From IMG/VR virus record IMGVR_UViG_3300045988_152087, positions 1-35,987 of that record: a stretch of 35,987 nt of DNA, one strand, 5' to 3'. Shown one piece after another: positions 1,159-35,987 of the stretch. A model generated the notes under the pieces. The model had not been told where the DNA came from and ran no database searches. It worked only from the letters and a program-made list of their open reading frames with translations. The stretch is from a virus. Both the position numbers and the translations under genes were made by a program. The first letter of the stretch is position 1, and each line of letters starts with the position of its first letter.

Positions 1159-1165
1159 GTGCTAG

Positions 1166-1210
1166 AGCATAAGAACGGCCCCGACACTGTGTCAAGTGCC
1201 GGGGCCGTTC
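1166..1210 (-). promoter_or_regulatory. Terminator hairpin with embedded sigma70-like promoter (module B) driving a leaderless surface-protein mRNA
   Basis: 15-bp stem 1173-1187/1196-1210 with one wobble and loop tgtgtcaa. On the reverse strand the loop holds TTGACA (1195-1190), then an 18-nt spacer, TATGCT (1171-1166), 7 nt (ctagcac), then ATG 1158. It lies directly downstream of the DUF2800 gene stop at 1229. Confidence 0.55.
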
Positions 1211-7065: not shown

Positions 7066-7074
7066 CCTGAACCC

Positions 7075-10944: not shown

Positions 10945-10960
10945 ACCGTAGGCTTAGACC

Positions 10961-11635
10961 ATGAAGCGAACCGTTCAGAAGCACGCCCGCGCTTGTATCA
11001 CCGTGGGTACAAGCAAGGCCGCGGCCGGCCGACGTCGTGAGGACGAGAAGCCCGAGGACGAGAAGCCCGAGGACGAGAAGCCCGAGGACGAGAAGCCCGA
11101 GGATGAGAAGCCCGAGGACGAGAAGCCCGAGGACGAGAAGCCTGAACGCAAGTCGGAGCCCGGCACCTTCACGGCCCTCGTCGCCGTCTTCGGCAACGTG
11201 GACTCCGACGGAGAGGTGACCGAAAAGGGCGCCTTCACCGAGGCGCTCGCCGAGCGCCCCACGGTGCCCATCATGTGGAGCCACGGCTACGGCACCTCCG
11301 ACATCGTGGGCTACTCGACTAAGGCAGAGGAGACCGACGAGGGGCTGTTGCTGGAGTGGAAGGCGCTCGACACCGAGATCGGCCGCTCTGTCGCCGAGCT
11401 TCTCGAGGTCGGAGCCATCACCGACTTCTCGTACTCCGCGATCGTCGAGGACTACACCGTGGAGAAGTCCGACGACGGCGAAATCCGCCACCTCACTAAA
11501 CTGGACCTGTGGGAGGCCGGGCCGTGTCTGCGCGGTGCGAATCCTCTCGCCAAGCTGAAGTCTCAGGACGCACCTGAGACTGACGACGCCGCGCAGCGGA
11601 CCGCCCGTGCCCGGCTGGCCCTCCTGGGCCTCTGA
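10961..11635 (+). CDS. Prohead protease (HK97/S78 family) with N-terminal acidic tandem repeat
   Basis: FGNVDSDGEVTEKGAFTEAL...PIMWSHG matches the HK97-type protease core. The N-terminus carries (EDEKP)x7. Confidence 0.8.
   Translation: MKRTVQKHARACITVGTSKAAAGRRREDEKPEDEKPEDEKPEDEKPEDEKPEDEKPEDEKPERKSEPGTFTALVAVFGNVDSDGEVTEKGAFTEALAERPTVPIMWSHGYGTSDIVGYSTKAEETDEGLLLEWKALDTEIGRSVAELLEVGAITDFSYSAIVEDYTVEKSDDGEIRHLTKLDLWEAGPCLRGANPLAKLKSQDAPETDDAAQRTARARLALLGL
11038..11142 (+). repeat. Perfect 15-bp tandem repeat x7 (gaggacgagaagccc; one unit gaggatgag...) encoding (EDEKP)7
   Basis: Seen directly in the sequence. It is in frame within the protease N-terminal extension. Confidence 0.95.
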
Positions 11636-13241: not shown

Positions 13242-13634
13242 ATGCAGACCACGCGCTACCAGATGTTCCAGGATGGCTCAATCGCCACCGTCACCACCCG
13301 GATCGCCCGCCAGGGAATCACGGTCGAGACTGAGGAGGCGTACCCGGTCCGAATGGGCCAGGACCCTGAGTCGGTTCTCCCCTACGAGAGTCTCAAGATG
13401 GTCGCCGAGAACGTCGTGGATGAGCTCGCTGCGGTTCGGGAGGCGCTCATGCGCTGCGGGTACGCCTCCTCCTGCGCCATCCCGAACACGCTGACCGTGT
13501 GCATCCCTGGGGGCACCTTCCCGCGCGTCGCCACCGTCTACGGAGACCCCGAGGGTGTCGGCATCTCGGGCCAGATGGCGGAGCCCTTGTCCCGCATTCT
13601 GGCTGCAGAGGGGGTTAACGTCAACGTAGACTGA
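13242..13634 (+). CDS. Head-tail joining protein (putative)
   Basis: 130-aa ORF with RBS tgaggagg, in the conserved position between MCP and tail genes. Confidence 0.5.
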   Translation: MQTTRYQMFQDGSIATVTTRIARQGITVETEEAYPVRMGQDPESVLPYESLKMVAENVVDELAAVREALMRCGYASSCAIPNTLTVCIPGGTFPRVATVYGDPEGVGISGQMAEPLSRILAAEGVNVNVD

Positions 13635-13638
13635 GCCC

Positions 13639-14175
13639 ATGGCCGCACACCTCTGCTCTATTGCCGCGCTCGCGCGCTCGCTCGGAAAGTCAGAACAGGA
13701 CCCGAACCTGATCTACGCCGTCGAGCGTGCGAGCGCGCGTTTTCGTTCCGCCGTCGGCCACAATGTCACCAAGGAGACCAAGACCCTGGTTCTGGACCCG
13801 CCGGCGGGGGAGACGCTGCTTCTACCAGTCAAGGGCGTCTCAGCGCTCACCGTGAAGCTTGGTGGCATCCCGCTGGAGCACGTGACGTACTCCCCGCGCA
13901 CGGGAGCACTGCGCCGCCACGGCGGCTGGGGCACCGAGCTGGGCACCATCGAGGTCACGTACACCGCTGGCACCGACGAGGTTCCTGACGACGTTGCGGA
14001 TGCGGTGGCGGAGCAGGCCGCGAGCATCTACGCCACGCTCGCCACGCCCGGCGTTCAGCAGATCAGCCAGGGCGTCCGGTCCATCACCTTCGGCACGGCG
14101 TCCACCGTCGGCACCACACAGCGGTGGTCCGAGGCCGTGGAGCGGCACCGCATCGACGGGCAGGGCATCCTGTGA
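13639..14175 (+). CDS. Head-tail adaptor/connector (putative)
   Basis: 178-aa ORF in the head-tail joining block. Confidence 0.5.
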   Translation: MAAHLCSIAALARSLGKSEQDPNLIYAVERASARFRSAVGHNVTKETKTLVLDPPAGETLLLPVKGVSALTVKLGGIPLEHVTYSPRTGALRRHGGWGTELGTIEVTYTAGTDEVPDDVADAVAEQAASIYATLATPGVQQISQGVRSITFGTASTVGTTQRWSEAVERHRIDGQGIL

Positions 14176-19239: not shown

Positions 19240-19251
19240 TAGACTGGGGTC

Positions 19252-20064
19252 ATGCCCAACGACACGTACTCAATTGATGGCGTCCCGCTGGATGATCCGG
19301 CGGGACGCTGGCGACTCACGGAGAAGACCGAGCTCCCACAGTGGGGGTCGATGGTCTCTCCCAGCGTCAAGGTGCCTCGCTACGACGGCGTGCTCGCGCT
19401 CGCCCCGATGGCGGCCGGCGTCTCCACGGTGAAGCTGGAGCTGCTCATCCTCGCAGCCCACCAGACCGCTGGGCTGCGTACCCTGCGCCACATCACGGGC
19501 GCTCGGTCGCTGCACACCATGGGCTGGACCCGCCGCGACGGTGAAGAGCTTGAGGCGCTGGTGCGCGTGTCGAGTTCGGTGTCTGCAAAGCCCAAGGGCA
19601 TCGACGGCGACCTGCTGGTCTCCTTCACCCTCGAGGCCGTCAACGGCGAGTGGCGACGGAAGACAGCCGAGCGCGTTGACACGGTGACGAACGGCCGCAA
19701 GTCCTTCCCGATCATCTCTGGCAAGGATGCCATCGCCACCCACATCGCGGTCAAGGCCGACACCGACGGTGGCGCCGTCGAAGTTCGGGACACCATCGGT
19801 GGGTCGGTCCTGAGCGTTGGCCGCGTGCCGAGCCAGCAGTGGCTCGTCATCAACACCGAGGAGTGGGACGTCCGCACCGTGCCGCAGGGGCGGGAGCGGA
19901 CCGCCGGGGAGGACGACCCCAGCACCATGCCGGTGGCACAGAGGTCGGTGCCTACGCTGTCGATCTCACCCGGCGGGTTCCGCCTCATGCAGCGGGACAA
20001 CGGCGATGGCGTCATCGAGGTCAACGGCGGTTCCGCGATCCTGTGGTGGAGGGGGGCGTACTGA
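19252..20064 (+). CDS. Distal tail protein (Dit-like, putative)
   Basis: 270 aa immediately after the TMP. Confidence 0.5.
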   Translation: MPNDTYSIDGVPLDDPAGRWRLTEKTELPQWGSMVSPSVKVPRYDGVLALAPMAAGVSTVKLELLILAAHQTAGLRTLRHITGARSLHTMGWTRRDGEELEALVRVSSSVSAKPKGIDGDLLVSFTLEAVNGEWRRKTAERVDTVTNGRKSFPIISGKDAIATHIAVKADTDGGAVEVRDTIGGSVLSVGRVPSQQWLVINTEEWDVRTVPQGRERTAGEDDPSTMPVAQRSVPTLSISPGGFRLMQRDNGDGVIEVNGGSAILWWRGAY

Positions 20065-23129: not shown

Positions 23130-23138
23130 CCCGGTAGC

Positions 23139-23165
23139 CTTGTCTGTATGGCTGATACAGACAAG
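23139..23165 (+). promoter_or_regulatory. Perfect 11-bp hairpin sequestering the start codon of the 23148 fibre gene
   Basis: cttgtctgtat (23139-23149) pairs with atacagacaag (23155-23165) across a 5-nt loop. ATG 23148-23150 sits in the stem/loop boundary, directly after the lysin stop. Confidence 0.5.
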
Positions 23166-24068
23166 ACACCCGAAGCGCCGTCCGCCATCGAGGTGGGCGG
23201 CGCTTCTGTACCTTCGCAGATCACGATCAACATCGGTGGCGCTTCGTCCGCCCCGGCCCCGCAGAAGCCGGTGGACCTGAGCGGCTACGTCCGCAAGGAG
23301 GATCTCCCGGCTGCACCGGACCTCAGCGGCTATGTCCGCAAGGAGGAACTCCCGGCTGCACCGGACCTCAGCGGCCTGGTGCGGAGGACCGAGCTCGACG
23401 AGACGCTGAAGGGCTTCACCAAGGCGTCCCAGACGGCCGCGATTGCCGACTCCATCCGGGCCACCCGAGCCAAGGCGGAGTCAACGGCGGCGACGGCGGA
23501 GGGGGTCGCCAAGGACATCGCCGCCACGCACGCCGCGGTGGTGGACCTGACCCGGCAGCCTCGCATCGTACGCCTCGACACGGGGGCTCCGGTGCCAGCC
23601 GGCACACCCCGCGGCGCCCTGATCTTCCGCACGGACAAGCCGCTGTCCTCCTCGGACCGGGAGTTCCCCCCGCTGAACGAGTGGTCACTGCTCAACGTCA
23701 CGGCCGAGCCAGACGGATACCACCTTCCCGGCGTCGGAGGCACCATCGTCCCGAAGGTGGACCAGATGAAGCCCTCCGACGGCCAGTGGGAGATCACGCT
23801 CACGTACTCGTGGCACGGCAACTTCGGCGAGCCGGAGATGACGTCCTATGTGTACAACGGCCGAACGTTCGAGGAGTTCGGAGTCACCAAGCTGGATCAG
23901 GGAGCCAAGCTGGCTGACTGGACGCTGAAGGCCGGAGACCGGGTGACCGCGAAGCTGACGGTGACGCCCCGCGAGGATGGGAACGCGACGTCGCTGTGGG
24001 CGCCCTGGATCGAGGCGCCGGCGAACGGCTTCGTGGTCCACGACGTCACGGTGCGCCGGGTGGCCTAG
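23148..24068 (+). CDS. Tail fibre-like protein with DLSGYVRKE(D/E)LPAAP x3 repeats
   Basis: 306 aa. The repeats are fibre-type, and a beta-rich C-terminal domain follows. Confidence 0.5.
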   Translation: MADTDKTPEAPSAIEVGGASVPSQITINIGGASSAPAPQKPVDLSGYVRKEDLPAAPDLSGYVRKEELPAAPDLSGLVRRTELDETLKGFTKASQTAAIADSIRATRAKAESTAATAEGVAKDIAATHAAVVDLTRQPRIVRLDTGAPVPAGTPRGALIFRTDKPLSSSDREFPPLNEWSLLNVTAEPDGYHLPGVGGTIVPKVDQMKPSDGQWEITLTYSWHGNFGEPEMTSYVYNGRTFEEFGVTKLDQGAKLADWTLKAGDRVTAKLTVTPREDGNATSLWAPWIEAPANGFVVHDVTVRRVA

Positions 24069-24077
24069 ACTGGGGCC

Positions 24078-24515
24078 ATGGCCACACGATCGATCACTTT
24101 CATCTCGCCTGCGGCGGGCTGGGTTCAGGTCTCTCCTGTCCTGCCCGCCGCAGGCGGCGTTGACGTTACGAACCTCCCCGATGTAGCTCTCCGTGAGACG
24201 CCTGGGCGAGGCACCTACTTCATCACCTGGGACGATGAGGGCTGGCGCGACTGGTCTGCCTCGGGTGCTGTCAGCGATGGCGGCTCGGTGCAGACCACCA
24301 GCGACCTGACTCCCGCCGGCATTCAGGCGATGCTTGAAGCCTCGGCCGCGGGGACCTCCGCGAAGCCGAGCGGCGGGGCTGGCTCTCCCGGTCCAGCGGG
24401 GCCTCCTGGGCGCCCCGGTGATGCGGGCCCGAGCAACCTGATGGTGCTGGAGAAGACTCAGCCCGTCCCGCCCGGAACGCCGGCTAACACAGTCCTGGTT
24501 CGGAAGGCGGTCTAA
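24078..24515 (+). CDS. Collagen-like repeat protein (tail fibre component, putative)
   Basis: GGAGSPGPAGPPGRPGDAGPS is a G-X-Y run. The start codon sits in the centre of the palindrome GGCCATGGCC. Confidence 0.45.
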   Translation: MATRSITFISPAAGWVQVSPVLPAAGGVDVTNLPDVALRETPGRGTYFITWDDEGWRDWSASGAVSDGGSVQTTSDLTPAGIQAMLEASAAGTSAKPSGGAGSPGPAGPPGRPGDAGPSNLMVLEKTQPVPPGTPANTVLVRKAV

Positions 24516-25309: not shown

Positions 25310-25348
25310 GCGAATCGCCCTCATCGCTTAGCGGTGGGGGCGATTCGC
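25310..25348 (+). terminator. Hairpin (11-bp perfect stem gcgaatcgccc/gggcgattcgc, 17-nt loop) after the holin-like gene
   Basis: Seen directly. A smaller cccc-tctc-gggg hairpin sits just upstream. Confidence 0.45.
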
Positions 25349-25361
25349 TACGATTGGGGTT

Positions 25362-25508
25362 ATGAACGACCAGCCCAAGATTGACGCCGCCGACATCATC
25401 AACCGCCTCTCCGCTGAGCTCTCGGCCATGACCACGCGGGCCGTGCTCGCGGAGTCGCGTGTCGCCGAGCTGGAGCGCGAGCAGGCTGAAGGCGGCGCTG
25501 AGTCCTAA
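25362..25508 (+). CDS. Small coiled-coil protein (48 aa), not in the ORF track
   Basis: MNDQPKIDAADIINRLSAELSAMTTRAVLAESRVAELEREQAEGGAES. Its TAA overlaps the downstream ATG (TAATG). Confidence 0.4.
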   Translation: MNDQPKIDAADIINRLSAELSAMTTRAVLAESRVAELEREQAEGGAES

Positions 25509-27058
25509 TGGCGAAGCTGCAGACATCCCCTAAGGGGAGCGTGTGGGCCGAGGTCGAGGACGACCCGGCCCTCTCCTCTGCGGCCAAGCTGGCGATCGCC
25601 ACGCTTCAGGCCGCGGGGAAACTGCCCGTCGGGACGAACCGCATCATTGACTCCGGCGCCCTACAAGACCCGGCTGCACAGACCATCGCGGCCGGCGTGG
25701 GGCGCTTCCTGAAGATCGAGGCCAACCAGATCATCGCCAGCAACGCCAACTTCGACGAGGCGGTGGCGAAGAAGCTGTGGTCGCAGATCGTCACGGCCAA
25801 GGAAGGCACCTTCGACAAGATCAAGGCGAACATGCTCGCCGTCGGGGCGCTCGACGGCCAGATCATCACGGGTGCCACAGTGCAGACCTCGGGGTCTGGC
25901 CGCGGCCGGGTGGTGCTGGACTCGAACGGCCTCCGGCTTGTCAGCGCAGACGGGTCAACCGACAAGTTCCGCATCGATGCCTCCACTGGAGACATCGACA
26001 TCACCGGCCGCCTCATGTCGAAGGACGATTGGTCCTTCGCCCGGTTGTCGGACATCTCGTCAACAGACCCCAGCGGTCCCGTTCGGTATGGCATGGGGCT
26101 AGTCTTTAACCGGTCTGTGGCGCCACTGCGCTACCCCGGCGGGATCATGCTCAAGCAGAATGAGCGGGGGGAGCTCCAGACCATCATCGCGCCGCCGGCA
26201 TCTAACTTCGATGTGTCCGGCCACTTCACGGTCGGGAACAGGGAGATCGGGTGGGGCGGAAATGCGGCGGCCTTCCGGGTCAACGGCGGGGCTATCGACT
26301 TCCAGGTGAACGGCCGCACGCTGGAGATGTACATCGGTCAGGCTGGAATCTCCTTCCAGAACGCACTCAACAACACCCGGATCGTGGCCCAGGGCCAGCG
26401 AAATGAGGCGTTCTTCTTCGCCGGCGACCGGTACACCACGGACAACGGCGTGCTCGCCGGCTGGGACCACTGGCGCATCTCCAGCGTCGGGGGCGGCCGC
26501 AACCTGGGGTTCGCCTCGGGGAGCAACGCTGGTACGTACATGTGGTCGAAAGCCAATGGCAACTACGCCTGCATCAACGGGGACGGATTCTTCACCACGG
26601 GGAAGACCAAGAGGTTCTCCATGCACGTCCCCAAGATGTCTGAAGAGCGGGGTGGCGCCATGCTTCAGCATATGGCAACCGAGTCCCCCTTCGATGGCAT
26701 CGAGTACTGGAACGTCGTCGAGCTCGACTCGAATGGGGAGGCATCCTGGGTCTTGCCGGATTACGTGCCCGCGATCGCGTCTCGGCGCGCCCCGTGGTGC
26801 GTGTTCTCGTCCTCTGACCGAGGCGCGTCTAGTGCCAGGCTGGAGCGTGGGGAGGACCGGTTCATCGCCCACGTGACCGGTGAGCCCGGCGCGTCGGTGT
26901 CGGTGCTCGTGAAGGGCGCTCGAATCATCGAGATCGAGGGCGCCGCGGGCGGGACTTGCAAGTGGCAGGACTTCGGTGACGGCGAAGCGCCGTGGTACAC
27001 CCTGGACCTGGGGGTGGAGGGCGCGGGCCCCCACAAGAGTGGAGAGATCATCTGGTGA
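25508..27058 (+). CDS. Minor tail / tail fibre (receptor-binding) protein
   Basis: 516 aa. IEANQIIASNANFDEAVAKKLWSQIVTAKEGTFDKIKANMLAVGALDGQIITGATVQTS is a typical actinophage minor-tail N-terminus. A Gly-rich beta C-terminal domain follows. Confidence 0.6.
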   Translation: MAKLQTSPKGSVWAEVEDDPALSSAAKLAIATLQAAGKLPVGTNRIIDSGALQDPAAQTIAAGVGRFLKIEANQIIASNANFDEAVAKKLWSQIVTAKEGTFDKIKANMLAVGALDGQIITGATVQTSGSGRGRVVLDSNGLRLVSADGSTDKFRIDASTGDIDITGRLMSKDDWSFARLSDISSTDPSGPVRYGMGLVFNRSVAPLRYPGGIMLKQNERGELQTIIAPPASNFDVSGHFTVGNREIGWGGNAAAFRVNGGAIDFQVNGRTLEMYIGQAGISFQNALNNTRIVAQGQRNEAFFFAGDRYTTDNGVLAGWDHWRISSVGGGRNLGFASGSNAGTYMWSKANGNYACINGDGFFTTGKTKRFSMHVPKMSEERGGAMLQHMATESPFDGIEYWNVVELDSNGEASWVLPDYVPAIASRRAPWCVFSSSDRGASSARLERGEDRFIAHVTGEPGASVSVLVKGARIIEIEGAAGGTCKWQDFGDGEAPWYTLDLGVEGAGPHKSGEIIW

Positions 27059-27065
27059 GGACGAT

Positions 27066-27413
27066 ATGGACCTGATTGAAATCACGCCACACGTGGTTCC
27101 CCTGCTCACCGCGATTGTGGCGGCTGCAGCCGCGATGGGGGGCGCGTCCCTGACTCGCAGGACTCAGCGAGAGGCGAGCAAGGTACAGATTCTTGACATC
27201 ACGGTGCAGCACCTCGCCGACCGGGTTGAGGCACTGGAGAAGTCGGTCGCCGTCGCGGAGTCCCGCCGTGACGAGGCTGTGGAGTCGGAGCGGGAGGCGC
27301 ACGCGGTGAAGTGGATAGCCATCGACTACGCCGGCCGACTACTCCGGTGGGCCCGAGCTCGAACGGATGACGTCCCCCCTGATCCGCCGGTCGAGATCGA
27401 GAAGCACCTGTGA
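27066..27413 (+). CDS. Membrane (1 TM) + coiled-coil protein; second holin/lysis-accessory candidate
   Basis: ATG 27066 (MDLIEITPHVVPLLTAIVAAAAAMGG...) is preferred; the ORF-track start at 26976 overlaps the upstream gene. It is the last gene of the rightward operon. Confidence 0.45.
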   Translation: MDLIEITPHVVPLLTAIVAAAAAMGGASLTRRTQREASKVQILDITVQHLADRVEALEKSVAVAESRRDEAVESEREAHAVKWIAIDYAGRLLRWARARTDDVPPDPPVEIEKHL

Positions 27414-27456
27414 GACGAAGACCCGCTGCACCATCACGGTGCAGCGGGTCTTCGTC
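27414..27456. terminator. Bidirectional terminator between the convergent late (+) and early (-) operons
   Basis: Perfect 19-bp inverted repeat gacgaagacccgctgcacc / ggtgcagcgggtcttcgtc with a 5-nt loop. A ttcgtcttcc T-rich tail follows on the plus strand. Confidence 0.8.
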
Positions 27457-27467
27457 TTCCCGGGGTG

Positions 27468-27668
27468 TCAGTCATGGGCCGGGGGCTCAGCGGAGAGGTA
27501 GACGGTGTGGGCCTCACGGTAGCGGGGGTGGCTGGGGTCCCAGTAGGCGCGCTTGGGCAGGGGGCGGGGCTTGCCGCGCAGCGCCCGGACGATGTTGAGG
27601 ATGACACCAGCGACGGCGGCGATGACGAAGGCGGTGATGGCGAGGAAGATGAGGGCGAGGAGGATCAT
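27468..27668 (-). CDS. Small membrane protein (1 TM), last gene of the early operon
   Basis: MILLALIFLAITAFVIAAVAGVIL..., with RBS gaaagg 11 nt upstream. Confidence 0.5.
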   Translation of the reverse strand: MILLALIFLAITAFVIAAVAGVILNIVRALRGKPRPLPKRAYWDPSHPRYREAHTVYLSAEPPAHD

Positions 27669-27692
27669 TGGTCTGTGCCTTTCGGGGTTGGG

Positions 27693-27914
27693 TCAGCGGT
27701 TGTTCTTGAGCCGGCGGGCGAGCCAGGCGCTCAGGATGAGGGTGGAGATCAGGGTCCCGAGGGCGAACACCTGAGTGATCGCGGTGGGGGCGGCGGCTAG
27801 AAGCAGGATGGCGACGCAGAGCGCGAGGCCCGCGATCCAGCCGGCGAGGCTGGTGCCGAGGATGAAGTCGGCGTCCTGGTTCATGACGTCGCGGTCGAGG
27901 TCGTTGGTGTTCAC
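27693..27914 (-). CDS. Small membrane protein (2 TM)
   Basis: GTG 27914 with RBS gaaagga, giving VNTNDLDRDVMNQDADFILGTSLAGWIAGLALCVAILLLAAAPTAITQVFALGTLISTLILSAWLARRLKNNR. The longer ORF-track call to 28244 overlaps the upstream gene. Confidence 0.45.
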   Translation of the reverse strand: MNTNDLDRDVMNQDADFILGTSLAGWIAGLALCVAILLLAAAPTAITQVFALGTLISTLILSAWLARRLKNNR

Positions 27915-28210
27915 AGCTTGGTGTCCTTTCTCTGGATGAACATGCCTGAGTCGATGTCGATGAGGAGGCTGGCGAAGTAGTCGTACCCGTCGTAGGTGAG
28001 ATCGGGGATGACGCCGTGGGCGACGATCTCGCCGTCGGTGCGGATGCTGAAGGCAACGGAGTCGTTGTCCAGCACCTCGGCGTAGAACACGGAGCGGCTG
28101 AGCTGGTTCGGCTTGATACCGACCACGTGCCCGCCCTCGCGGACCAGATGGCCTTCGTACCTGAGGGCCATGTCCATCGACTGCATGATCTGGAGCGTGT
28201 CGTTTGCCAT
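27911..28210 (-). CDS. Hypothetical protein
   Basis: 99-aa ORF of ordinary composition. Its stop overlaps the downstream GTG. Confidence 0.5.
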   Translation of the reverse strand: MANDTLQIMQSMDMALRYEGHLVREGGHVVGIKPNQLSRSVFYAEVLDNDSVAFSIRTDGEIVAHGVIPDLTYDGYDYFASLLIDIDSGMFIQRKDTKL

Positions 28211-28278
28211 GGCTCAACCATATGCACGAGCACGGCGGCCACACAAGTTATGTGGCCGCCGTGCTTACGTGATGCTTG

Positions 28279-29436
28279 TCACCAGAGGCGCCAAGCCAGC
28301 GCGTCCCCTCCCTTCACCTCGAAGCTCAGGACGCTTGACGCTGTTGAGTCGCCGGAGATGTTCGTCCACCAGTCCGACCCACGGTCCGCGCTCGGGCAGG
28401 AGATCACCCACCGGCCGTCCCCGACCTGGCTCACGCCGAAGTTGTGCCAGTGCCCGTGAACCAGCACATGGGCACGTTCTAGGCCACTCCTGCGGCCGAA
28501 CGCCTGGCCCCTGAACCAGTCACCCACCTTGGACTGCCGACCCGCCAGATGGCCGTGTGTGAAGCCCACAGCGGTGCCCCCGACGTCCACGGTCACAGAC
28601 TCCTCGTGGGGCAGTGGCCGAGCGAACTCGACGTGCTCGAATCCGGGTCGGCCGGCCACGACGTCCTCGACGTTCTCCGAGATCATCAGCCCGAAGTCGT
28701 CGAACGGCGCGTTGGCCTGCTTGCCCTTTCCAAGCCCGGTCCGGACCTGGCAGTGGTTGGACGGAACAGCGACGTAGACGAGACGGCCACAGAACGGAGC
28801 GAGCTCGGCCACCGTCTCAGCGAGGATGCGCTGTGCGACCCTGATCTGTGTGGTGAGCGCGATGTCGTTCGTCTGGGCCTGGCTGGACACGTTCCAGAAC
28901 CCCTCCGTGACGTCCCCGACGTCGGCCAGCACGAGGGTGGACAAACCGCCTTCCAGGATCGACGCCTTGAACGACCGCACGGCGCTGCGGACGCGGGCGA
29001 TCGTCTCGGCCGTCCCGCCTCGGGAGCCCACCTTGCCGATCTGGAGATCAGCCAGGCAGAGCACAGCGTGCTTCTCGGGTGCGAGCGGGTCCCGCTCCCA
29101 CACCTCAGGCTCTCGGTCAAACACCGGCAGCAGGTCGTCGTAGGACAACGACTTGGCCTCGGCCATCTCGGCGGCGCCCGGCTTCCACGTGATCTTCTCG
29201 TAGGAACCGTCGGGTAGGCGGATCGTCTTCCCGCGCTGCACGATGGCGTCCACGGGGACGTCGTTGAAGAACGCGTCGTGCCCCTGGTCGGGGGCGCCGC
29301 GGCGCTTCAGCTTGGCCCGGTGCCGGCGCACCGATGCCTCAGAGGTGCTGAACTCGTCCGCGATCTCTTGGTTGGTCCGCTGCCGCTCGCGGGGAAGCAG
29401 GTCATTGGCGATGATCGCCTCGTCAAGCGGGGTCAA
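28279..29436 (-). CDS. HTH domain + calcineurin-like metallophosphoesterase
   Basis: N-terminal HTH (RTNQEIADEFSTSEASVRRHRAKL). Phosphoesterase motifs LADLQIGK, GDVTEG, NH and GHWH are present. Confidence 0.65.
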   Translation of the reverse strand: MTPLDEAIIANDLLPRERQRTNQEIADEFSTSEASVRRHRAKLKRRGAPDQGHDAFFNDVPVDAIVQRGKTIRLPDGSYEKITWKPGAAEMAEAKSLSYDDLLPVFDREPEVWERDPLAPEKHAVLCLADLQIGKVGSRGGTAETIARVRSAVRSFKASILEGGLSTLVLADVGDVTEGFWNVSSQAQTNDIALTTQIRVAQRILAETVAELAPFCGRLVYVAVPSNHCQVRTGLGKGKQANAPFDDFGLMISENVEDVVAGRPGFEHVEFARPLPHEESVTVDVGGTAVGFTHGHLAGRQSKVGDWFRGQAFGRRSGLERAHVLVHGHWHNFGVSQVGDGRWVISCPSADRGSDWWTNISGDSTASSVLSFEVKGGDALAWRLW

Positions 29437-29699
29437 TGGGCGACCCCCGCGATCTCCCGCAGCTCCGCCGGGCGGTAGCCGCTCAGCGTGCGGACAAGAG
29501 CGCCTGAGTCGTCCCGCACCTCAACCAACGGCGCGCTGGTCATACCGAGCGCCTTAGCGTTGCTGAGCGCCAGAGCGGACTCAGGGCTTCCGTCGGTTAG
29601 AGAGCGCTCATCGTAGGCAAGGCCTAGCTTGTCGATCATCTTCATAGTGAGTCGGCAGGGCTGGCAATTGGGCTGGTGAAAAACGGTGATGTGCTTCAT
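29433..29699 (-). CDS. nrdH: NrdH-like glutaredoxin/redoxin
   Basis: VFHQPNCQPC carries the CxxC active site, and size and fold fit NrdH-redoxin. Confidence 0.75.
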   Translation of the reverse strand: MKHITVFHQPNCQPCRLTMKMIDKLGLAYDERSLTDGSPESALALSNAKALGMTSAPLVEVRDDSGALVRTLSGYRPAELREIAGVAH

Positions 29700-29710
29700 G
29701 TCTTCTGAGG

Positions 29711-30172
29711 TTAGTCGTGCTTGCCGGCAATCTTGCAGATTCCCCGGACAAGCTTGGTGGTTGCGTCAGACAGCCGGGTGTGGAACCGGGCTACCCCGAT
29801 CTCCCGCCCCCGGTCGAGGACGATGATGGCGTTACGCGCCCGGTTGTAGTCGAGGGACACCTCGCGGCTGATCGCTTCAGCTCCGCAGCCCTCGGCGGAG
29901 CCCCCCATCGCTTCGGCGATGCGAGCTCGCAGGGCCCCGGGCAGGAGTCCCGCGTCGGCAAGGGCGAGAACCTCACCGATGGTCCACTCAGGCCGTCGGG
30001 CCAGGCGCTCGGACAGGTTCCCCGCCTTGGCGCCGAGCGGGTCCGCGATCCGCTTCATGTCCCGCAGGTAGTACTGCCCCCGGTGGTATGCGAGGTCCTC
30101 TAGGTGGTCGCAGATTTCTGAGGTGGCGCGCGCGTCCTGCTCGACGGCGCTGGGGCTGAGTCGGCGTCTCAC
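29711..30172 (-). CDS. Hypothetical protein
   Basis: GTG 30172 overlaps the upstream TGA (GTGA). 153 aa. The longer ORF-track call would overlap the upstream gene. Confidence 0.45.
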   Translation of the reverse strand: MRRRLSPSAVEQDARATSEICDHLEDLAYHRGQYYLRDMKRIADPLGAKAGNLSERLARRPEWTIGEVLALADAGLLPGALRARIAEAMGGSAEGCGAEAISREVSLDYNRARNAIIVLDRGREIGVARFHTRLSDATTKLVRGICKIAGKHD

Positions 30173-30504
30173 TGGGAAACCACCTCCGCGAAGTCCCGCG
30201 CGAACCAGTCCGCCGCCTTGCTCGCGAGGCCACCACGCCCCGTTCGGGAGTAAGCGTGAATGCGACCCGACTCCGTGGTGGTCCGGCCAGTCGGTGACCA
30301 CTCAATCGCTCGCAAGGTCCAGTGTCCGCGGTTATCCACGCCGAAGCTCTTCGAGGTGCGCGTCGCCCCTCTCTTCTCGTCAAAGAAGACGCAAACGCTC
30401 TTCGGCGTGACTCGGATGTCCTTGACGTGGGCAGGGAGCACGGCTCGGAGTGCCCGCTCCATCTCCTTGGCAAAGTCCTCGATGACGATGGTTTGTGTCG
30501 CCAT
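30169..30504 (-). CDS. Hypothetical protein
   Basis: ATG 30504 is preceded by strong RBS aaggagg. 111 aa, MATQTIVIEDFAKEMERALR... Confidence 0.55.
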   Translation of the reverse strand: MATQTIVIEDFAKEMERALRAVLPAHVKDIRVTPKSVCVFFDEKRGATRTSKSFGVDNRGHWTLRAIEWSPTGRTTTESGRIHAYSRTGRGGLASKAADWFARDFAEVVSQ

Positions 30505-30559
30505 TGGGTTCCTCCTTGGTTGGGTTGTATTGGGCATATCATGCGCAGATGTTCTGCGA

Positions 30560-32524
30560 CTAGTCAAGTTCATCCGCGTCCGTGAGCTTCCTGTAACGGT
30601 CCACGACGCCGCCGGCAGCGCGCAGGTGCAGGCCCGGCGCCCACGGCAGGTCGGAGCTCATGATGTCCCGAACCTTGTGGAACGCCTCGATGCCGGCGGA
30701 GGACGGCTTTCCGGCCGCGTAGTCCCACCACTCAGCAGGCCCCTTTATGAGCACCTCATCGTGGACGTGGGCCACGATCTCGAACCCCGCGCGATCGAGC
30801 CGCACCATTGCAGATGCCAGGCAGTCGCGGGCCACGGCCTGCACGAGGTTCTCCGTCAGGCGACCGCCGAACGTCTCGACGGCGATGCCGCGGCGCGCGT
30901 CCCAGAACGCCACGGACGGGCGGCCCCAGCGGTCCTGCGTCGCACGGATGCCTCGGTAGATCAGGGTTCGGCCGCTCGGCAGCAGCATCCTGCGGAAGGC
31001 TCGGCCGAAAGAGTCCTGCCCGGCGACGATGCGCTCCCCGCCAGTTCGGAACTCGCGGCCGAGCTGGTCCCACAGCGCCGTGATGTGGGGGTTCGCTCGG
31101 CGCCATGCGTCCACCTGGGCCTGAAGCGCCTCGTCGCTCGGGCCGTCGCCTGCGAACACGCGCAGACCGTTCGGACCCGCGCCGTAGCCGCAGCCGAGCA
31201 GGGCCGTCTTACCCTCCTGGCGAGTCATCTCGTGGCCGACGGCGGAGCTCATGCGCGATGCCGTCTCGACGTAGAGGTCACGCTTGGCCTCGTAGGCGTC
31301 TAGCACCCATTGCTCGCCGGCGAGCCAGGCAAGCACGATAGCCTCGATGGAGGTGTAGTCGCAGACGATCAGGGGGCCGGCAATGACCGAGCGCACGCAC
31401 GCCGCAACCTCGACCGGGGTTACCAGCTCGCCGAGCAGGCACTTGTCGAGCACGTCGTCAACCGTCTCTCCCTCGGGCAGATGCTCCCGGGGGAGGTTCT
31501 GCGGCTGGAAGCCGCTCCCGCTCCAGCGGCCGGTGTGGGCGCCGAGGTAGCGGAGAGTCCCACGCGCTCGGTTGCCGGCGCCCCGTCGCAGCTCGGCCGC
31601 CGCGAGCTTCTTCCCCGCGACGCGGGCGGACGCCACTCGCAACTCAGCGACGCGACGCACCTCGGCCGGTAGCGACTCGTCCGCGGCCAGGCGCTCAACG
31701 GTCTCTCGGCGTAGATCGGGGAGGTTGATCCCCTTCGACGCGAACCACGTGCACAGCTGGGCGGTGCTGTTCGGGTTGGCGAGGCCGGTGATGCTCTTCA
31801 ACTCCTCCGCCTGTCGGCTCACGTTGTCGTCCTCGCAGCGCTGAAGGGCGTGCAGCAGCTCGACATCGAGGGGGAGGCCGGCATCCGTGATCTTCTCGGC
31901 GGTGAGCTCGACGGCGCGCTCCAACGCCGAGGGGGACAGGTCGATAGCCTGCCACTCGCGCTCCAGCGCGCGGTGCGCCTGCCGGAGGACCTCGACGTCC
32001 TGGATGCCGTAGGCGCGGAACTCAGTCCAGCGCTCGGGGTCATCGCTCGGCATGCGTCGGCCGCCGCGGAACGTCTTGGTCGCCGGCTGCGGCTTGGCGA
32101 AGCGGTTAATGAGGAGCGTCCCGGCCGTGTCCTTGTCCTCACACTTCAGCGCCTTGGCGAGGCTCTTCAGCGAGCTGGGGAGGCCGAGGAGGTACGCCCA
32201 GTGCATGGTGTCGATCCACTCGGCGGGGTCGAGGTAGTTGCCAGTGGCGCGTCCGTGGGTGTACGCGCTGACCTGGATTCGGTCGAACGCAGCGTTGTGA
32301 GCGACCTTGGTAACCGCAGGGTCCTGGATGAGGCCCAGGAACTCACCCCACAGCTCGGGGTCATGGCCCTCGGTGGTGGGCCCCTCGGTGATCTTCACAG
32401 GCTTGTCGTCGAGCGCCCACATCGCGAGGGTGATGCAGGCTTCAGGGCTCTCAGCGTAGCGGTGCGCGCCGGCCGAGATATCGATGTCGGAGTAGGTCTC
32501 AGTGTCTAGGTAAAGGGTTGGCAT
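30560..32524 (-). CDS. DNA polymerase I family (3'-5' exonuclease + family-A polymerase)
   Basis: Exo I motif LYLDTETYS, motif B RQEGKTALLGCGYGAG and motif C HVHDEVLI are present. The alternative start GTG 32590 overlaps the DUF3310 stop (GTGA) and would place hairpin 32538-32584 inside codons 3-19. Confidence 0.8.
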   Translation of the reverse strand: MPTLYLDTETYSDIDISAGAHRYAESPEACITLAMWALDDKPVKITEGPTTEGHDPELWGEFLGLIQDPAVTKVAHNAAFDRIQVSAYTHGRATGNYLDPAEWIDTMHWAYLLGLPSSLKSLAKALKCEDKDTAGTLLINRFAKPQPATKTFRGGRRMPSDDPERWTEFRAYGIQDVEVLRQAHRALEREWQAIDLSPSALERAVELTAEKITDAGLPLDVELLHALQRCEDDNVSRQAEELKSITGLANPNSTAQLCTWFASKGINLPDLRRETVERLAADESLPAEVRRVAELRVASARVAGKKLAAAELRRGAGNRARGTLRYLGAHTGRWSGSGFQPQNLPREHLPEGETVDDVLDKCLLGELVTPVEVAACVRSVIAGPLIVCDYTSIEAIVLAWLAGEQWVLDAYEAKRDLYVETASRMSSAVGHEMTRQEGKTALLGCGYGAGPNGLRVFAGDGPSDEALQAQVDAWRRANPHITALWDQLGREFRTGGERIVAGQDSFGRAFRRMLLPSGRTLIYRGIRATQDRWGRPSVAFWDARRGIAVETFGGRLTENLVQAVARDCLASAMVRLDRAGFEIVAHVHDEVLIKGPAEWWDYAAGKPSSAGIEAFHKVRDIMSSDLPWAPGLHLRAAGGVVDRYRKLTDADELD

Positions 32525-32537
32525 GGCTATAGAATAT

Positions 32538-32584
32538 GACGAAGCCCCCGGTGTCCGCAAGTTCTGCGGCCCGGGGGCTTCGTC
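32538..32584 (-). promoter_or_regulatory. Hairpin (14-bp perfect stem gacgaagcccccgg/ccgggggcttcgtc, nested inner stem) with TTGCGG-N18-TATTCT-N6-ATG leaderless promoter candidate
   Basis: Seen directly. The stem sequence matches the hairpin at 12888-12929. On the reverse strand it is followed by aTATTCTatagccATG. Confidence 0.45.
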
Positions 32585-32586
32585 AC

Positions 32587-32814
32587 TCACTCATCCCCTA
32601 GTCTCTTCAGTTCCCTGTTGATGTACCACCTCGCTTTCTTCAGGTCCTCGATGGTCTTCATCGCGTCCTTGCGCCCTGCTCGGGCGATGTACTTGACCGC
32701 GTTCCCGCGGTTGAAGTTCAGGTTCTCCGTGATGTCGATGACCTCGGCGCCGTTGGACCATCCCTCGGCGTAGTGGCTGGGGTGGTTCACCGAGTCACGT
32801 GCGTCTCGGCCCAT
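32587..32814 (-). CDS. DUF3310 family protein
   Basis: PSHYAEGWSNGAEVIDITENLNFNRGNAVKYIARAGRKDAMKTIEDLKKARWYI matches the DUF3310 signature (PSHY...GNaiKYi.Ra.rK). Confidence 0.7.
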   Translation of the reverse strand: MGRDARDSVNHPSHYAEGWSNGAEVIDITENLNFNRGNAVKYIARAGRKDAMKTIEDLKKARWYINRELKRLGDE

Positions 32815-33068
32815 CGTCTCGCCCCCTCTGTCGTGTCGATTGTGGTGACTGGGTGGCCCATGGCCTCGAGGTGCCGGTGGACCATCTTCTGCGACTCCCT
32901 TGGCACCTCGCCAGGGGCCTTGAGCTCGACTAGCCTCGTCTCCCCATTCGGGAGGAGGATCAGCCGGTCGGGGAGCCCCCTCATCGTGGGGGCTAGCTTG
33001 ATCGCTAGACCCCCGCGGGCGCTGACCGCTGCGACCAGCGCCCGCTCAACTGGGGTCTCGGGCCTCAC
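32787..33068 (-). CDS. VRR-NUC domain nuclease
   Basis: GLPDRLILLPNGETRLVELKAPGEVPRESQKMVHRHLEAMGH is VRR-NUC-like. Confidence 0.65.
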   Translation of the reverse strand: MRPETPVERALVAAVSARGGLAIKLAPTMRGLPDRLILLPNGETRLVELKAPGEVPRESQKMVHRHLEAMGHPVTTIDTTEGARRWAETHVTR

Positions 33069-33637
33069 ATCAGACCCGCGAGGGGGTCCTCGTCAGCGGC
33101 CGGCTGACTGGCGGACGGCTGGGCGGGGCCGAACAGGCTCTCTGCCGAGGCGGCTCCCCCGCCGAAGCGCTCACCACCACCGAGGATCTGGACCATCTGG
33201 AGCCCGAAGGAGACCCCCTTGGACCCATCCACCTCGTAGGCGAAGGCACGAACCGCGACGCGGGCCTTCTGGCCGCCGTATACCTCCTCGGCGATCTGCT
33301 CGTCGGAGAACGGGAGGAGGTCCGTGCCCACGATCGGCACTCGGCGGATCGAGGAGGCGTTGAAGGTGATGTGCCCGGCCTGCTCCTCGTAGTCGCTGTT
33401 GTCCCCGTCCTTCAGCGGGGTACGCAGGCTCTTCGGGACCTTGGTGCCCCACTTCTCGGCGGCGGCCTCGCGGACGGCGCCCTTCAGGGCCTCGATGGTG
33501 GTGGTGTCACTCTTGGGGACCATGACGGCGGTGGAGACCTTGGGCTTGCTGTTGCCGTTGCGGGCCTCCAGCTCCGCCAGGTGGGGCCAGGACAGGGTTG
33601 CAGGGCCAGTGGTGACGTCGACGCTCATGCGTTTTCC
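33065..33637 (-). CDS. DUF2815 family protein (phage ssDNA-binding-like)
   Basis: ATG 33637 with RBS gagaggaaaa. The N-terminus MSVDVTTGPATLSWPHLAELEA matches the DUF2815 start. The longer ORF-track call to 33874 would engulf the overlapping HTH ORF. Confidence 0.65.
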   Translation of the reverse strand, partial: GKRMSVDVTTGPATLSWPHLAELEARNGNSKPKVSTAVMVPKSDTTTIEALKGAVREAAAEKWGTKVPKSLRTPLKDGDNSDYEEQAGHITFNASSIRRVPIVGTDLLPFSDEQIAEEVYGGQKARVAVRAFAYEVDGSKGVSFGLQMVQILGGGERFGGGAASAESLFGPAQPSASQPAADEDPLAGLM

Positions 33638-33867
33638 TCTCGGGTTTGGTTGGTGTTGGGGCGACGGCGGGCGAACTTGCCCGCCCAGCGCATCGCTGTC
33701 TGCGTGGTGACTCCGACCTCTCGGGCGATCATGGGCCACGGGAGGCCCAGCTTGTGGAGCCGGTTGAGCGCCCGGCGGCGCTCGGTGGTGAAGCGGGAGA
33801 GACTCGTCTCCTGCTTCTCGATCAGGTTGCGGAGGTTGTCCACCTCCTTGCGGATATCGTCGTCCAT
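33625..33867 (-). CDS. Small HTH DNA-binding protein
   Basis: 80 aa; LGLPWPMIAREVGVTTQTAMRWAGK is a helix-turn-helix. It overlaps the DUF2815 start by 13 nt. Confidence 0.5.
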   Translation of the reverse strand: MDDDIRKEVDNLRNLIEKQETSLSRFTTERRRALNRLHKLGLPWPMIAREVGVTTQTAMRWAGKFARRRPNTNQTREENA

Positions 33868-33870
33868 GGC

Positions 33871-35325
33871 TCAAATATATGCGAGGTCATCCGAATCGGT
33901 CAAGTTGACACCCCCGTGTTCCTCATCACTCAGGCCGAGCGTGGTGAACACCGTCCGCTGGATGTCCGCCTTGCGGCCCAGCGCGTCCCAGATCGCGGAA
34001 GCGATAGACGGCTCTCCGCGGCCGTACACCGGCACGTTGAACTGGCAGGACACACTCTCCGCCGTCTGGCCTGGCCGGGCGAGTCGGGCGTTAGCCTGCT
34101 CCCACAGCTCCAGCGACCACGGCAAGCAGGACCACACCAGCGACTCACCCCCGAACTGGAGGTTGAGCCCGTGACCCGCTGACGCCGGGTGGGCGATAAG
34201 CACGTCAAGGTTGCCGGCGTTGAACGCCGCGCGGTCCTCGGCGCGCTTGGCCGAGCCGATGCGCATCTCCCGCAGCTGAGCCCGCAAGTACGGTTCCTCG
34301 TGCCTGAACCACGTCATCACCAGAACGCCGCGGCCAGTGACCTTCAGGCGAGCGCGCACGGCCGAGGCCGTGTAGTCCAGAGCCGGCCGAATGCGGTCCA
34401 CCTGAACCAGCTCGGGCTCAGCATCGGGGTCGAGCGGCGGCCGATACCAGATCGCCCCAGTGGTGAGCTGGTGCATCAGGTTCGCCACGGCACCCGGCCC
34501 CGACGTGTAGACCTCGCGCCCGTCGGGCAGGTGCGTCACGCCGTCGGCGAGCAGCTCCCTGCTCATGCGGACCGCCTCGCACCCCATGGTCGGGGTGAGC
34601 GCCTGGTAGGCCACCCCGGGAAGCACGAGCCCCTCGCCGGCCTCGGCGTATCGCATCACGTCGGACGCCTTGAGGATAAGCCGCCGCATCGCCCCGGGGC
34701 GCGGCTCGCGGCCGACTCGGGCGCCTGTGGGGATCATCCGCCCCTCGGTGAGGTACTCGTCGCGGGCACGGGTGACCGTCTTGCCAAGGCGCTCCCCACC
34801 GTCGAGCATCCGCACCAGCGACCACACCCCGATCGGATCATGGCCTGGGGTGCCGGTCAGCAACCACAGACGGTCGGCCGCCGAGGCCAGCTCCCGCAGC
34901 GCTCGGGCACGCTGGGACTCACCCCGGCTCGCCGAGGGGGTCATGTACCCGCTGGCCTCATCGACCACTACCGTTCTCCACGTGGTGTCGCTGAGCACGG
35001 CATCCCGGATCGAGGCGCTGGAGAGCACCACGACGTCGGCCAGCGTGTCGTCCAGAGCGGCGCGGCGCTTCGACGCTGGCGTGCGCGGGGCGGCCTCTAC
35101 GACGAGCGGGATGCTGCGGCGCTCGGCCTCGTCAGACCACGTGGACTCACTGACCGTCGGGGGTGCCAGGACGAGGGCTGGGAAGGAGTCAGCGGGCAGG
35201 TCCGCGAGCGCCCGCAGCGTCGTCCACGTCTTTCCGGTGCCCATGCCCGCGATGAGGAGACCCCTCGGGTGGCTGACGAGCCATTCCCGGGAGGTCTCCT
35301 GCTCCGGTGTGAGGGCCGCTGTCAC
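33871..35325 (-). CDS. SNF2-family helicase (DEAD/DEAH-like ATPase + helicase C domain)
   Basis: Walker A GMGTGKT, VVVDEASGY and helicase-C motif HPASAGHGLNL are present. GTG 35325 overlaps the upstream stop (GTGA). Confidence 0.8.
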   Translation of the reverse strand: MTAALTPEQETSREWLVSHPRGLLIAGMGTGKTWTTLRALADLPADSFPALVLAPPTVSESTWSDEAERRSIPLVVEAAPRTPASKRRAALDDTLADVVVLSSASIRDAVLSDTTWRTVVVDEASGYMTPSASRGESQRARALRELASAADRLWLLTGTPGHDPIGVWSLVRMLDGGERLGKTVTRARDEYLTEGRMIPTGARVGREPRPGAMRRLILKASDVMRYAEAGEGLVLPGVAYQALTPTMGCEAVRMSRELLADGVTHLPDGREVYTSGPGAVANLMHQLTTGAIWYRPPLDPDAEPELVQVDRIRPALDYTASAVRARLKVTGRGVLVMTWFRHEEPYLRAQLREMRIGSAKRAEDRAAFNAGNLDVLIAHPASAGHGLNLQFGGESLVWSCLPWSLELWEQANARLARPGQTAESVSCQFNVPVYGRGEPSIASAIWDALGRKADIQRTVFTTLGLSDEEHGGVNLTDSDDLAYI

Positions 35326-35735
35326 AGCGGTAGACCCCTCCGCACGAGGCATGCGACCATGCCGAGGTTCAGCACGTCATCACCGTCGGGCAGGCCGTCG
35401 GTGCGGTGGGCGAAGTCGTCGAGGCACAGCAGCAGCTCATCGGCGCTGGCCGTCTCTCCGGCCGCGCAGCACTCGTAGGCAACGCGGGCCGGCTCGCCCT
35501 GGGCGCCGATGGGGTCTCCGAGGCTGCGGTCGATCTCGCGGCACAGCACGAGGGCCGACTCGCAGACCGATGCGACGCGCTCAGCGCTCGCCGGCGCCGC
35601 CCCCTGGTCGAGGGCGAAGTGCAGCGAGGACGTCAGCGCCCGCGCCTTCTGCGCCGCGCGCATGTGGCCATAGGGGATGCTTGCCAGCTCAGCGGCGGAT
35701 GCCCGCTGAACCATCTCAAATGTTGGGTTGCTCAT
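35322..35735 (-). CDS. Hypothetical protein, first gene of the early leftward operon (leaderless start)
   Basis: ATG 35735 (MSNPTFEMVQ...) lies 7 nt downstream of the TATGCT -10 of promoter A. The ORF-track start at 35771 would lie inside the promoter. Confidence 0.5.
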   Translation of the reverse strand: MSNPTFEMVQRASAAELASIPYGHMRAAQKARALTSSLHFALDQGAAPASAERVASVCESALVLCREIDRSLGDPIGAQGEPARVAYECCAAGETASADELLLCLDDFAHRTDGLPDGDDVLNLGMVACLVRRGLPL

Positions 35736-35742
35736 GTGCCTA

Positions 35743-35786
35743 AGCATAGAATCGGCTCCCCGCCTTGTCAAGAGGGGAGCCGATTC
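35743..35786 (-). promoter_or_regulatory. Terminator hairpin with embedded sigma70-like promoter (module A)
   Basis: 13-bp perfect stem 35749-35761/35774-35786 with loop gccttgtcaaga. On the reverse strand the loop holds TTGACA (35771-35766), then a 17-nt spacer, TATGCT (35748-35743), 7 nt (taggcac), then ATG 35735. It lies directly downstream of the surface-protein stop. Confidence 0.6.
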
Positions 35787-35799
35787 AGTTCCTATTGGG

Positions 35800-35987
35800 T
35801 CAGTGGTTGCGGCGGTTGCGGACGAGGAGTCCCGCGCCGACCAGGGCCGCGGCCGTGAGCAGTGCTCCGCCGGCCGCGATTCCGGTGTGGGCGAGCTGTG
35901 GGGTCTCGGCCGAGGGGGTCGGGGTGGGCTCGGGCTTCTTGGGCTCGACCGAGGGGGTGGGCTCGGGCTTCTTGGGCTCGACCGAGG
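35800..35987 (-). CDS. Cell-wall-anchored surface protein, C-terminal part (PT repeats + LAHTG sortase motif + TM + basic tail); enters from the window end
   Basis: Reverse translation gives ...SVEPKKPEPTPSVEPKKPEPTPTPSAETPQLAHTGIAAGGALLTAAALVGAGLLVRNRRNH*. LAxTG is the class-E sortase signal of Actinobacteria. Confidence 0.8.
   Translation of the reverse strand, partial: SVEPKKPEPTPSVEPKKPEPTPTPSAETPQLAHTGIAAGGALLTAAALVGAGLLVRNRRNH

Follow-up and report, generated by a model that had tools for sequence, protein, structure and literature searches.

We analyzed a 35,987-nucleotide (nt) viral contig with a G+C content of 67% (IMG/VR virus record IMGVR_UViG_3300045988_152087, positions 1 to 35,987; referred to as the window) and focused on the element that fills the gap between two of its minus-strand genes, one encoding a DUF3310 protein and the other, polA, encoding a family A DNA polymerase I. 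The gap is 62 nt long. A preliminary description, made from this sequence alone, had reported that a hairpin, TTGCGG, 18 nt, TATTCT, 6 nt, and an ATG precede polA in that order, and all of these elements are present (Table 1). The hairpin, which we call module C, begins 2 nt past the DUF3310 stop codon. Its arms are separated by 19 nt, within which there is an inner helix of 5 bp (32569-32565 with 32559-32555; CCGCA/TGCGG) and an apical loop, GAACT. The -35-like and -10 hexamers share bases with the hairpin region: TTGCGG lies in the loop and inner helix, the 18 nt between TTGCGG and TATTCT are essentially the 3′ arm of the stem, and TATTCT abuts the stem. The 6 nt between TATTCT and the polA ATG are ATAGCC.

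We folded the region from 32600 to 32520 (81 nt) as RNA. The predicted energy was -47.7 kcal/mol, compared with -25.2 ± 2.9 kcal/mol for shuffled sequences (z = -7.8), and none of 200 shuffles was as good. Across the whole window, there were no matches to Rfam 15 at the gathering threshold.

Table 1. Positions of the genes and sequence elements described in the text
Feature	Positions	Strand	Details
DNA polymerase I (family A) gene, polA	30560-32524	-	654 amino acids (aa); PF00476, PF01612
DUF3310 gene, upstream of polA	32587-32814	-	75 aa; Pfam PF11753, E = 9.6e-14; stop TGA 32589-32587
Module C hairpin	32537-32585	-	Perfect 15-bp outer stem, 32585-32571 / 32551-32537
-35-like hexamer TTGCGG	32555-32560	-	In hairpin loop, within AACTTGCG; invariant alignment columns 26-33
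-10 hexamer TATTCT (TANNNT)	32531-32536	-	Abuts 3′ arm; doubles as U-rich stretch
polA ATG	32522-32524	-	Predicted transcription start; start of MPTLYLDTETYS
Alternative start GTG	32588-32590	-	In frame; GTGA overlap with DUF3310; judged unused
Module A	35733-35786	-	Hairpin 35786-35749; TTGACA in loop 35771-35766; TATGCT 35748-35743; N7; ATG 35735
Module B	1156-1210	-	Hairpin 1210-1173; TTGACA in loop 1195-1190; TATGCT 1171-1166; N7; ATG 1158
Module D	28208-28265	-	Hairpin 28265-28229; 15-bp core; loop TAACTTG
Module D promoter (predicted)		-	TTGTGT 28246-28241; N18; TATGGT 28222-28217; N6; ATG 28210 (99-aa gene)
Module E	33865-33903	-	TTGACC-N18-TATATT-N6-ATG 33867 (helix-turn-helix [HTH] gene); without hairpin
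HTH protein gene	33867-33625	-	
HNH promoter (predicted)	5798-5836	+	TTGCGC-N18-TACGCT-N6-ATG 5834; without hairpin
Module F	25310-25364	+	Hairpin 25310-25348, 19-nt arms; TACGAT 25349-25354; N7; ATG 25362
Structural-gene TAG(A/C/G)CT sites	7063-7077, 10949-10963, 13627-13641, 19240-19254, 23135-23150, 24066-24080	+	
Convergent-junction hairpin	27413-27457		Where both arms of genes meet; perfect 20 bp; no U-tract on either strand
LPXTG-type (LAHTG) adhesin-like gene	1-1158 and ~35800-35987	-	Across contig junction; ATG 1158

To follow the element in other phages, we used the close relatives of this phage, of which approximately 20 to 30 are found in IMG/VR, ENA, and Logan metagenome assemblies, several of them from human-microbiome samples. 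The module C alignment consists of 13 distinct sequences from approximately 17 clade loci. Compensatory double changes were found at 7 of the 15 stem pairs, and 96.4% of the cells of the alignment were paired. As controls, we shuffled the alignment columns, with 0 of 500 shuffles as good, and shifted the pairing register, which left 36 to 53% of cells paired. The loop sequence AACTTGCG, the hexamer TATT(C/A)T (TATTCT or TATTAT in all clade members), and the 6-nt distance to the ATG were invariant; the sequence of those 6 nt varied.

The preliminary description had proposed that the same design recurs in this genome beyond the two junctions designated modules A and B, and this was borne out. 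A strict pattern, TTGNNN-N17/18-TANNNT-N6/7-ATG, occurs 6 times in the window, whereas 300 dinucleotide-preserving shuffles gave an expectation of 0.023. Each of the six sites is a gene start: 1158, 35735, 33867, 32524, and 28210 (minus strand) and 5834 (plus strand). With a permissive pattern (TTGNNN-N16-19-TANNNT-N5-8-[AG]TG followed by an open reading frame [ORF] of at least 40 codons), seven sites were found; six of these are genuine gene starts, and their intervals are N17/18 and N6/7. Four modules (A, B, C, and D) have a hairpin whose loop holds the -35. Module A lies past the stop codon of an LPXTG-type adhesin-like gene and starts a 137-aa gene, and module B lies past the DUF2800 exonuclease gene and starts the LPXTG gene. 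The module E promoter sits within the 3′ end of the SNF2 helicase gene. Module F, which follows the holin gene and precedes a 48-aa ORF, has the hairpin and -10 without a -35. At the hairpin modules, the hairpin begins 2 to 21 nt past the upstream stop codon. No sequence relationship links the arms of modules A, B, C, D, and F; what is conserved is complementarity alone. At the HNH gene on the plus strand, the predicted promoter is as the preliminary description gave it: TTG, TACGCT, the 6-nt interval, and the ATG are kept in relatives L093-L103 while the spacer and upstream flanks diverge, and no hairpin was found upstream of HNH (fold z = +0.9). As a word, AACTTG is not over-represented in the window (8 copies versus 5 expected; 5 of the 8 are at predicted -35 sites), and its meaning comes from position alone. 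GACGAAG is enriched (16 versus 6.7 expected), with most copies being intragenic.

Two further regions are of note. At 2800-2864 on the minus strand, the order is reversed: a near-consensus predicted promoter, TTGACA-N18-TATTGT, occurs just past the primase stop codon and is followed by a 16-bp hairpin (2836-2800), which would sit at the 5′ end of its own transcript; a Shine-Dalgarno (SD) sequence and ATG 2781 follow. The divergent intergenic region between the primase and HNH genes (5256-5833; 580 bp) contains A+T-rich, CT/GA-rich tracts at 5600-5690 and GTGAC...GTCAC-type palindromes just 5′ of the HNH promoter, and is a candidate cos site, origin, or operator.

Hairpins other than that of module C are also maintained in relatives. 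For module D, there were double changes at 14 of 19 pairs, and 90.6% of cells were paired; pairing holds as well in a sister clade (L010, L090, and L092; PolA identity, 83 to 85%), whose arms show no sequence relationship. Modules A, B, and F keep hairpins of -29 to -43 kcal/mol through altered arms, and the hairpins of modules C and D have energies of -30 to -44 kcal/mol in every relative. The stem of module F covaries, with TACGAT, TACTAT, or TAATAT as the -10. We conclude that there is selection for base pairing at these hairpins. In a clade with 52% identity, polA overlaps the upstream gene, which belongs to the dCTP deaminase/dUTPase family (Pfam DCD, dUTPase), and the cassette is absent. 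A motif scan of L011-L018, L124, L145, and L189 gave three scattered matches, none with a hairpin. Since these distant phages with homologous polymerases lack it, the cassette is specific to the clade studied here.

We next considered how the polA message might be translated. The 20 nt 5′ of ATG 32524 form a duplex of only +0.7 kcal/mol with the 16S rRNA tail, indicating that there is no SD sequence. A TANNNT hexamer whose first T is ~12 nt before the start codon has been described as a signature of leaderless genes, being commonest in Actinobacteria (PMC3160421). Such hexamers are separated from the start codon by 6 or 7 nt at 13 of 13 TANNNT-class starts in this genome (6 nt for polA). Mean SD energies at these starts were -1.1 kcal/mol for the minus strand and -4.0 kcal/mol for the plus strand, compared with -9.9 kcal/mol (-7.5 to -12.7 kcal/mol) for late SD-led genes and -4.4 kcal/mol for background. 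The suggestion that polA mRNA is leaderless, made in the preliminary description, thus fits both the position of the predicted -10 and the absence of an SD sequence. On the plus strand, seven starts without an SD sequence carry a TANNNT-class hexamer 6 to 7 nt before the ATG: TAG(A/C/G)CT at six structural-gene starts (7075, 10961, 13639, 19252, 23148, and 24078), including that of the large terminase, and TACGAT at a lysis-region start (25362). Other late genes have strong SD sequences. The late hexamers are kept in relatives, and the intervening 6 nt vary freely. The six TAG(A/C/G)CT sites look like -10-only promoters for leaderless mRNAs or an SD-independent start signal of another sort.

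On the strength of these patterns, we think it probable that the gap between DUF3310 and polA serves as a compact terminator-promoter cassette and that the polA mRNA made from it is leaderless. Transcripts arriving from upstream would fold a very stable hairpin, which would end them, or insulate them and stabilize their 3′ ends. A housekeeping-sigma-type promoter would be nested in the same DNA, with the loop AACTTGCG as its -35 and the 3′ arm of the stem, which would be sequence neutral, as its 18-nt spacer. TATTCT, directly after the stem, would serve both as the -10 and as the sole U-rich stretch, giving an imperfect U-tail. Transcription would start 6 nt past the -10, on the A of ATG 32524, and the polA message would have neither a 5′ leader nor a ribosome-binding site. 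We infer the transcription start, the termination activity, and the hand-over of RNA polymerase (RNAP) from terminator to promoter. By analogy with post-termination sliding of RNAP, coupling of termination to reinitiation is plausible. The label "attenuator," which the preliminary description had offered for the hairpin, is unsuitable because the predicted mRNA begins at the ATG, downstream of the hairpin, and does not contain it.

Several observations weigh against the proposed cassette, and its weakest link is the strength of termination. The tail after the module C stem, UAUUCUAU, has U in 5 of 8 positions, interrupted, rather than a U-tract of 7 to 9 nt, and mycobacterial RNAP reportedly needs a U-tract (PMC3993855). 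A generic scan gave no terminator-like sites in 27000-35987. Only 3 of the 6 positions of TTGCGG agree with TTGACA, the spacer is 18 nt long, and the polA promoter was not called by the generic promoter/terminator scan, which did pick up modules A, B, and E along with two leadered promoters (30567 and 2864). Covariation of an inverted repeat, taken alone, fits RNA pairing and a DNA palindrome alike, and the asymmetry of G-U over A-C mismatches, which is seen in module D (21 versus 9) and not in module C (1 versus 1), favors sense RNA only weakly. With regard to the -35, AACTTGCG is invariant in relatives, and modules A and B carry TTGACA at the same place. With regard to termination, the hairpin at the convergent junction (27413-27457), judged from gene order to be the surest terminator position in the genome, likewise lacks a U-tract; hence, hairpins without U-tails are the local style.

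We regard ATG 32524 as very likely the start of polA, given that distant homologues share its position, that an N-terminal extension is broken in relatives, and that the sister clade uses the same ATG. Of 1593 PolA homologues found, those at 52% and ~40% identity all start M-x(1-4)-L-[YF]-[LI]-D-x-E-T, and their N termini (MHLLFLDTETYS, MKLYIDLETYS, and similar) align with MPTLYLDTETYS, with one or a few residues preceding the exonuclease motif; the shared start position of the distant homologues can be written MxxLxLDxETYS. In L084, the codon at the conserved start position is GTG. Sister-clade genomes use the same polA ATG, and 6 nt ahead of it they have AGGAG/AGGAA; farther upstream are a plain hairpin and two additional small genes. 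The preliminary description had raised an alternative, a start at GTG 32590 that would couple polA translation to DUF3310 through the GTGA overlap and make the hairpin an RNA structure within the coding sequence. The frame is open from this GTG, a GGGG run lies 4 nt 5′ of it (SD duplex, -6.9 kcal/mol), and gene callers picked it in approximately half of the close relatives (products of 676 to 682 aa). However, L009 has GTA in place of the GTG, the extension lacks any ATG or GTG in L088/L089, and in L085-L087 it is interrupted by an in-frame TAA four codons ahead of the ATG, while all of these genomes keep the hairpin, -35, -10, and ATG. Moreover, the 22 residues change radically where the stem changes (e.g., DEAPGP to DEPLRT) with no protein-level conservation, the codons of the extension have G+C at 14 of 22 third positions (manual count) versus a fraction of 0.87 for the polA gene, and no homologue outside the close clade has an N-terminal extension. 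As far as the sequences indicate, the 22-codon extension exists in the close clade only because the hairpin is open in frame, and we consider the GTG start very improbable.

The sister clade also differs in the sequence directly before the polA ATG: L090 has four tandem copies of an SD-like unit, AGGAACACCC, at ~4160-4222, and L092 and L010 have a single AGGAGCACCC.

If the ATG is accepted, the hairpin itself could still be read in other ways. The inverted repeat could act as DNA, being either the operator of a dimeric regulator or a cruciform centered on the -35 that gates the promoter. A dyad centered on the -35 is classic operator geometry, palindromic half-sites would covary as well, the stem base GACGAAG...CTTCGTC is common to module C, the convergent-junction hairpin, and module D of some relatives, and an HTH protein is encoded nearby. 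Against this, the unrelated arms of the four modules would need four different regulators, no single sequence being repeated at many sites as an operator or stoperator would be, and single-pair flips are spread across the whole of the 15- to 19-bp arms. Four features favor a role as RNA: every hairpin begins just past a stop codon, the arms differ, G-U pairs are tolerated on the sense strand, and equivalent hairpins occur without a promoter, one at the convergent junction and others, in the sister clade, ahead of an SD-led polA. We consider action as DNA decidedly unlikely. Single-strand initiation (priming) hairpins and cruciforms were also considered and are less likely, since every hairpin starts past a stop codon and ends at the -10. 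As RNA, the hairpin might be a processing or stabilizing element (an RNase III-type site or a barrier to 3′ exonucleases) in a read-through polycistronic early transcript, possibly with polA retaining its own promoter. In phage T7, hairpins between genes are sites of cleavage of the early mRNA, and the helices here are near continuous over 20 to 22 bp, longer than those of typical terminators, with internal loops and no canonical U-tract. Cleavage, however, would leave an SD-less leader before ATG 32524, which would be poorly translated, and processing alone does not explain the strict TANNNT-N6-ATG geometry; we regard this explanation as a live rival, though an improbable one. Chance juxtaposition of weak hexamers and an unrelated palindrome would account for the poor match of TTGCGG/TATTCT to the E. 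coli consensus (7 of 12 positions) and for the unremarkable frequency of AACTTG, but it is effectively refuted by the excess of the full pattern, all at gene starts, and by its retention across relatives while stems and spacers vary.

The terminator-promoter cassette that we favor can be compared with known arrangements. Stable intergenic hairpins without U-tails punctuate the early region of this phage, as they are said to do in actinophage phiC31. There, Rho-independent terminators that lack poly-U tails were reportedly described by Ingham and colleagues in 1995, in a region that also has multiple internal promoters. The phiC31 early promoters are said to be a phage-specific class and not to be embedded in hairpins.

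Overlaps of terminators with promoters have been documented between enterobacterial translation operons (2019; PMC6735719). As in those operons, the predicted terminator overlaps the -35 and -10 of the next unit and intergenic space is minimal; the overlap is conserved in both cases and was proposed to be regulatory there. Those operons are cellular, with leadered, SD-dependent mRNAs and canonical terminators, whereas the phage element has its -35 in the loop, its -10 abutting the stem, a poor U-tract, and a predicted leaderless mRNA, and is repeated four to five times in one 36-kb genome. SigA-like promoters giving leaderless mRNAs have been predicted in actinobacteriophages, for example, in Cluster O mycobacteriophages (Corndog PL1, PR2, and PL2); stem-loop terminators are described there as separate elements, and nesting of promoter and hairpin is not reported (PMC4351075). 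The TA-like signal of Zheng et al. 2011 (PMC3160421) shares with the phage starts the motif, its distance from the start codon, and mutual exclusion with SD sequences, but it is a statistical signature of cellular genomes, whereas here it occurs in a phage and in combination with a hairpin. The component elements are thus already known; what is novel is the strict nested geometry, its four to five repeats in one small genome, its covarying conservation, and the leaderless starts.

If the cassette works as proposed, a terminator-like hairpin and a promoter can share the same 50 bp. The sequence-specific parts of the promoter would sit in the sequence-free loop and tail of the hairpin, and the sequence-free spacer of the promoter would sit in the arm that is bound by complementarity. 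Such a cassette would be a natural compact insulator part for high-G+C hosts and a natural system for testing whether terminated RNAP reinitiates at an adjacent promoter. For annotation, the consequence is immediate: because the reading frame is by chance open through the hairpin, gene callers appear to have given the polymerase a spurious 22-residue N terminus in approximately half of the relatives, and the same trap is to be expected wherever leaderless starts follow palindromes. If the leaderless class truly includes structural genes, the picture of late-operon expression in actinobacterial phages would change.

The contig is a circularly closed phage, since its ends (1-32 and 35956-35987) are identical over 32 nt and a single minus-strand ORF runs in frame across the junction once they are joined. 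The overlap lies inside a tandem repeat that encodes PSVEPKKPEPTPT, and the number of repeat units may have been reduced by assembly collapse. The plus strand carries the HNH, terminase, structural, and lysis genes. The replication arm, on the minus strand, encodes a primase/helicase, the DUF2800 exonuclease, the SNF2 helicase, the HTH protein, a Gp2.5-like single-stranded DNA-binding protein, a VRR-NUC-like endonuclease, the DUF3310 protein, PolA, a thioredoxin-like protein, and a metallophosphatase-type exonuclease. Within a subset of the ORFs, from the early arm and lysis region (20 scanned with PHROGs and 9 with Pfam), neither an integrase nor a repressor turned up. A megablast search of the polA region against cultured phages gave no match, and the best cultured-phage PolA match by protein has 39% identity (Glutamicibacter, Brevibacterium, and Corynebacterium phages). 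A scan of isolate genomes and metagenome-assembled genomes gave relatives at 31 to 37% identity only, with no prophage copy and no host assignment. The G+C content, an LAxTG sorting signal, and the nearest cultured-phage polymerases point to an actinobacterial host.

The sorting signal belongs to the LPXTG-type protein, which has a signal peptide, Big_8 and DUF7926 domains, PSVEPKKPEPTPT repeats, and an LAHTG sortase motif near 35800. Its gene is absent from L085/L086 and truncated in L008/L088, and it looks like a moron inserted exactly at the leaderless ATG. Morons, a concept due to Hendrix and Juhala, are phage genes that have been inserted between two others and bring along their own promoter and terminator; the LPXTG gene similarly lies between module B (promoter) and module A (hairpin). 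Unlike in morons, the trailing terminator would supply the next gene with a substitute promoter, and the cassettes on either side are paralogous. One joint reading, which we put forward tentatively and think unlikely as a whole, takes the cassette to be a working unit rather than a mere saving of space and extends it in three directions: RNAP released at a hairpin would be handed to the embedded promoter, giving termination-coupled reinitiation with transcripts tiled head to tail; genes would be expressed by two codes; and cassettes would act as moron joints. Under two-code expression, approximately 13 genes, including those for terminase, tail, and lysis functions within the structural operon, would be leaderless through TANNNT-N6-ATG, and the rest would depend on SD sequences. 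The LPXTG gene between modules A and B would be an example of the moron-joint role.

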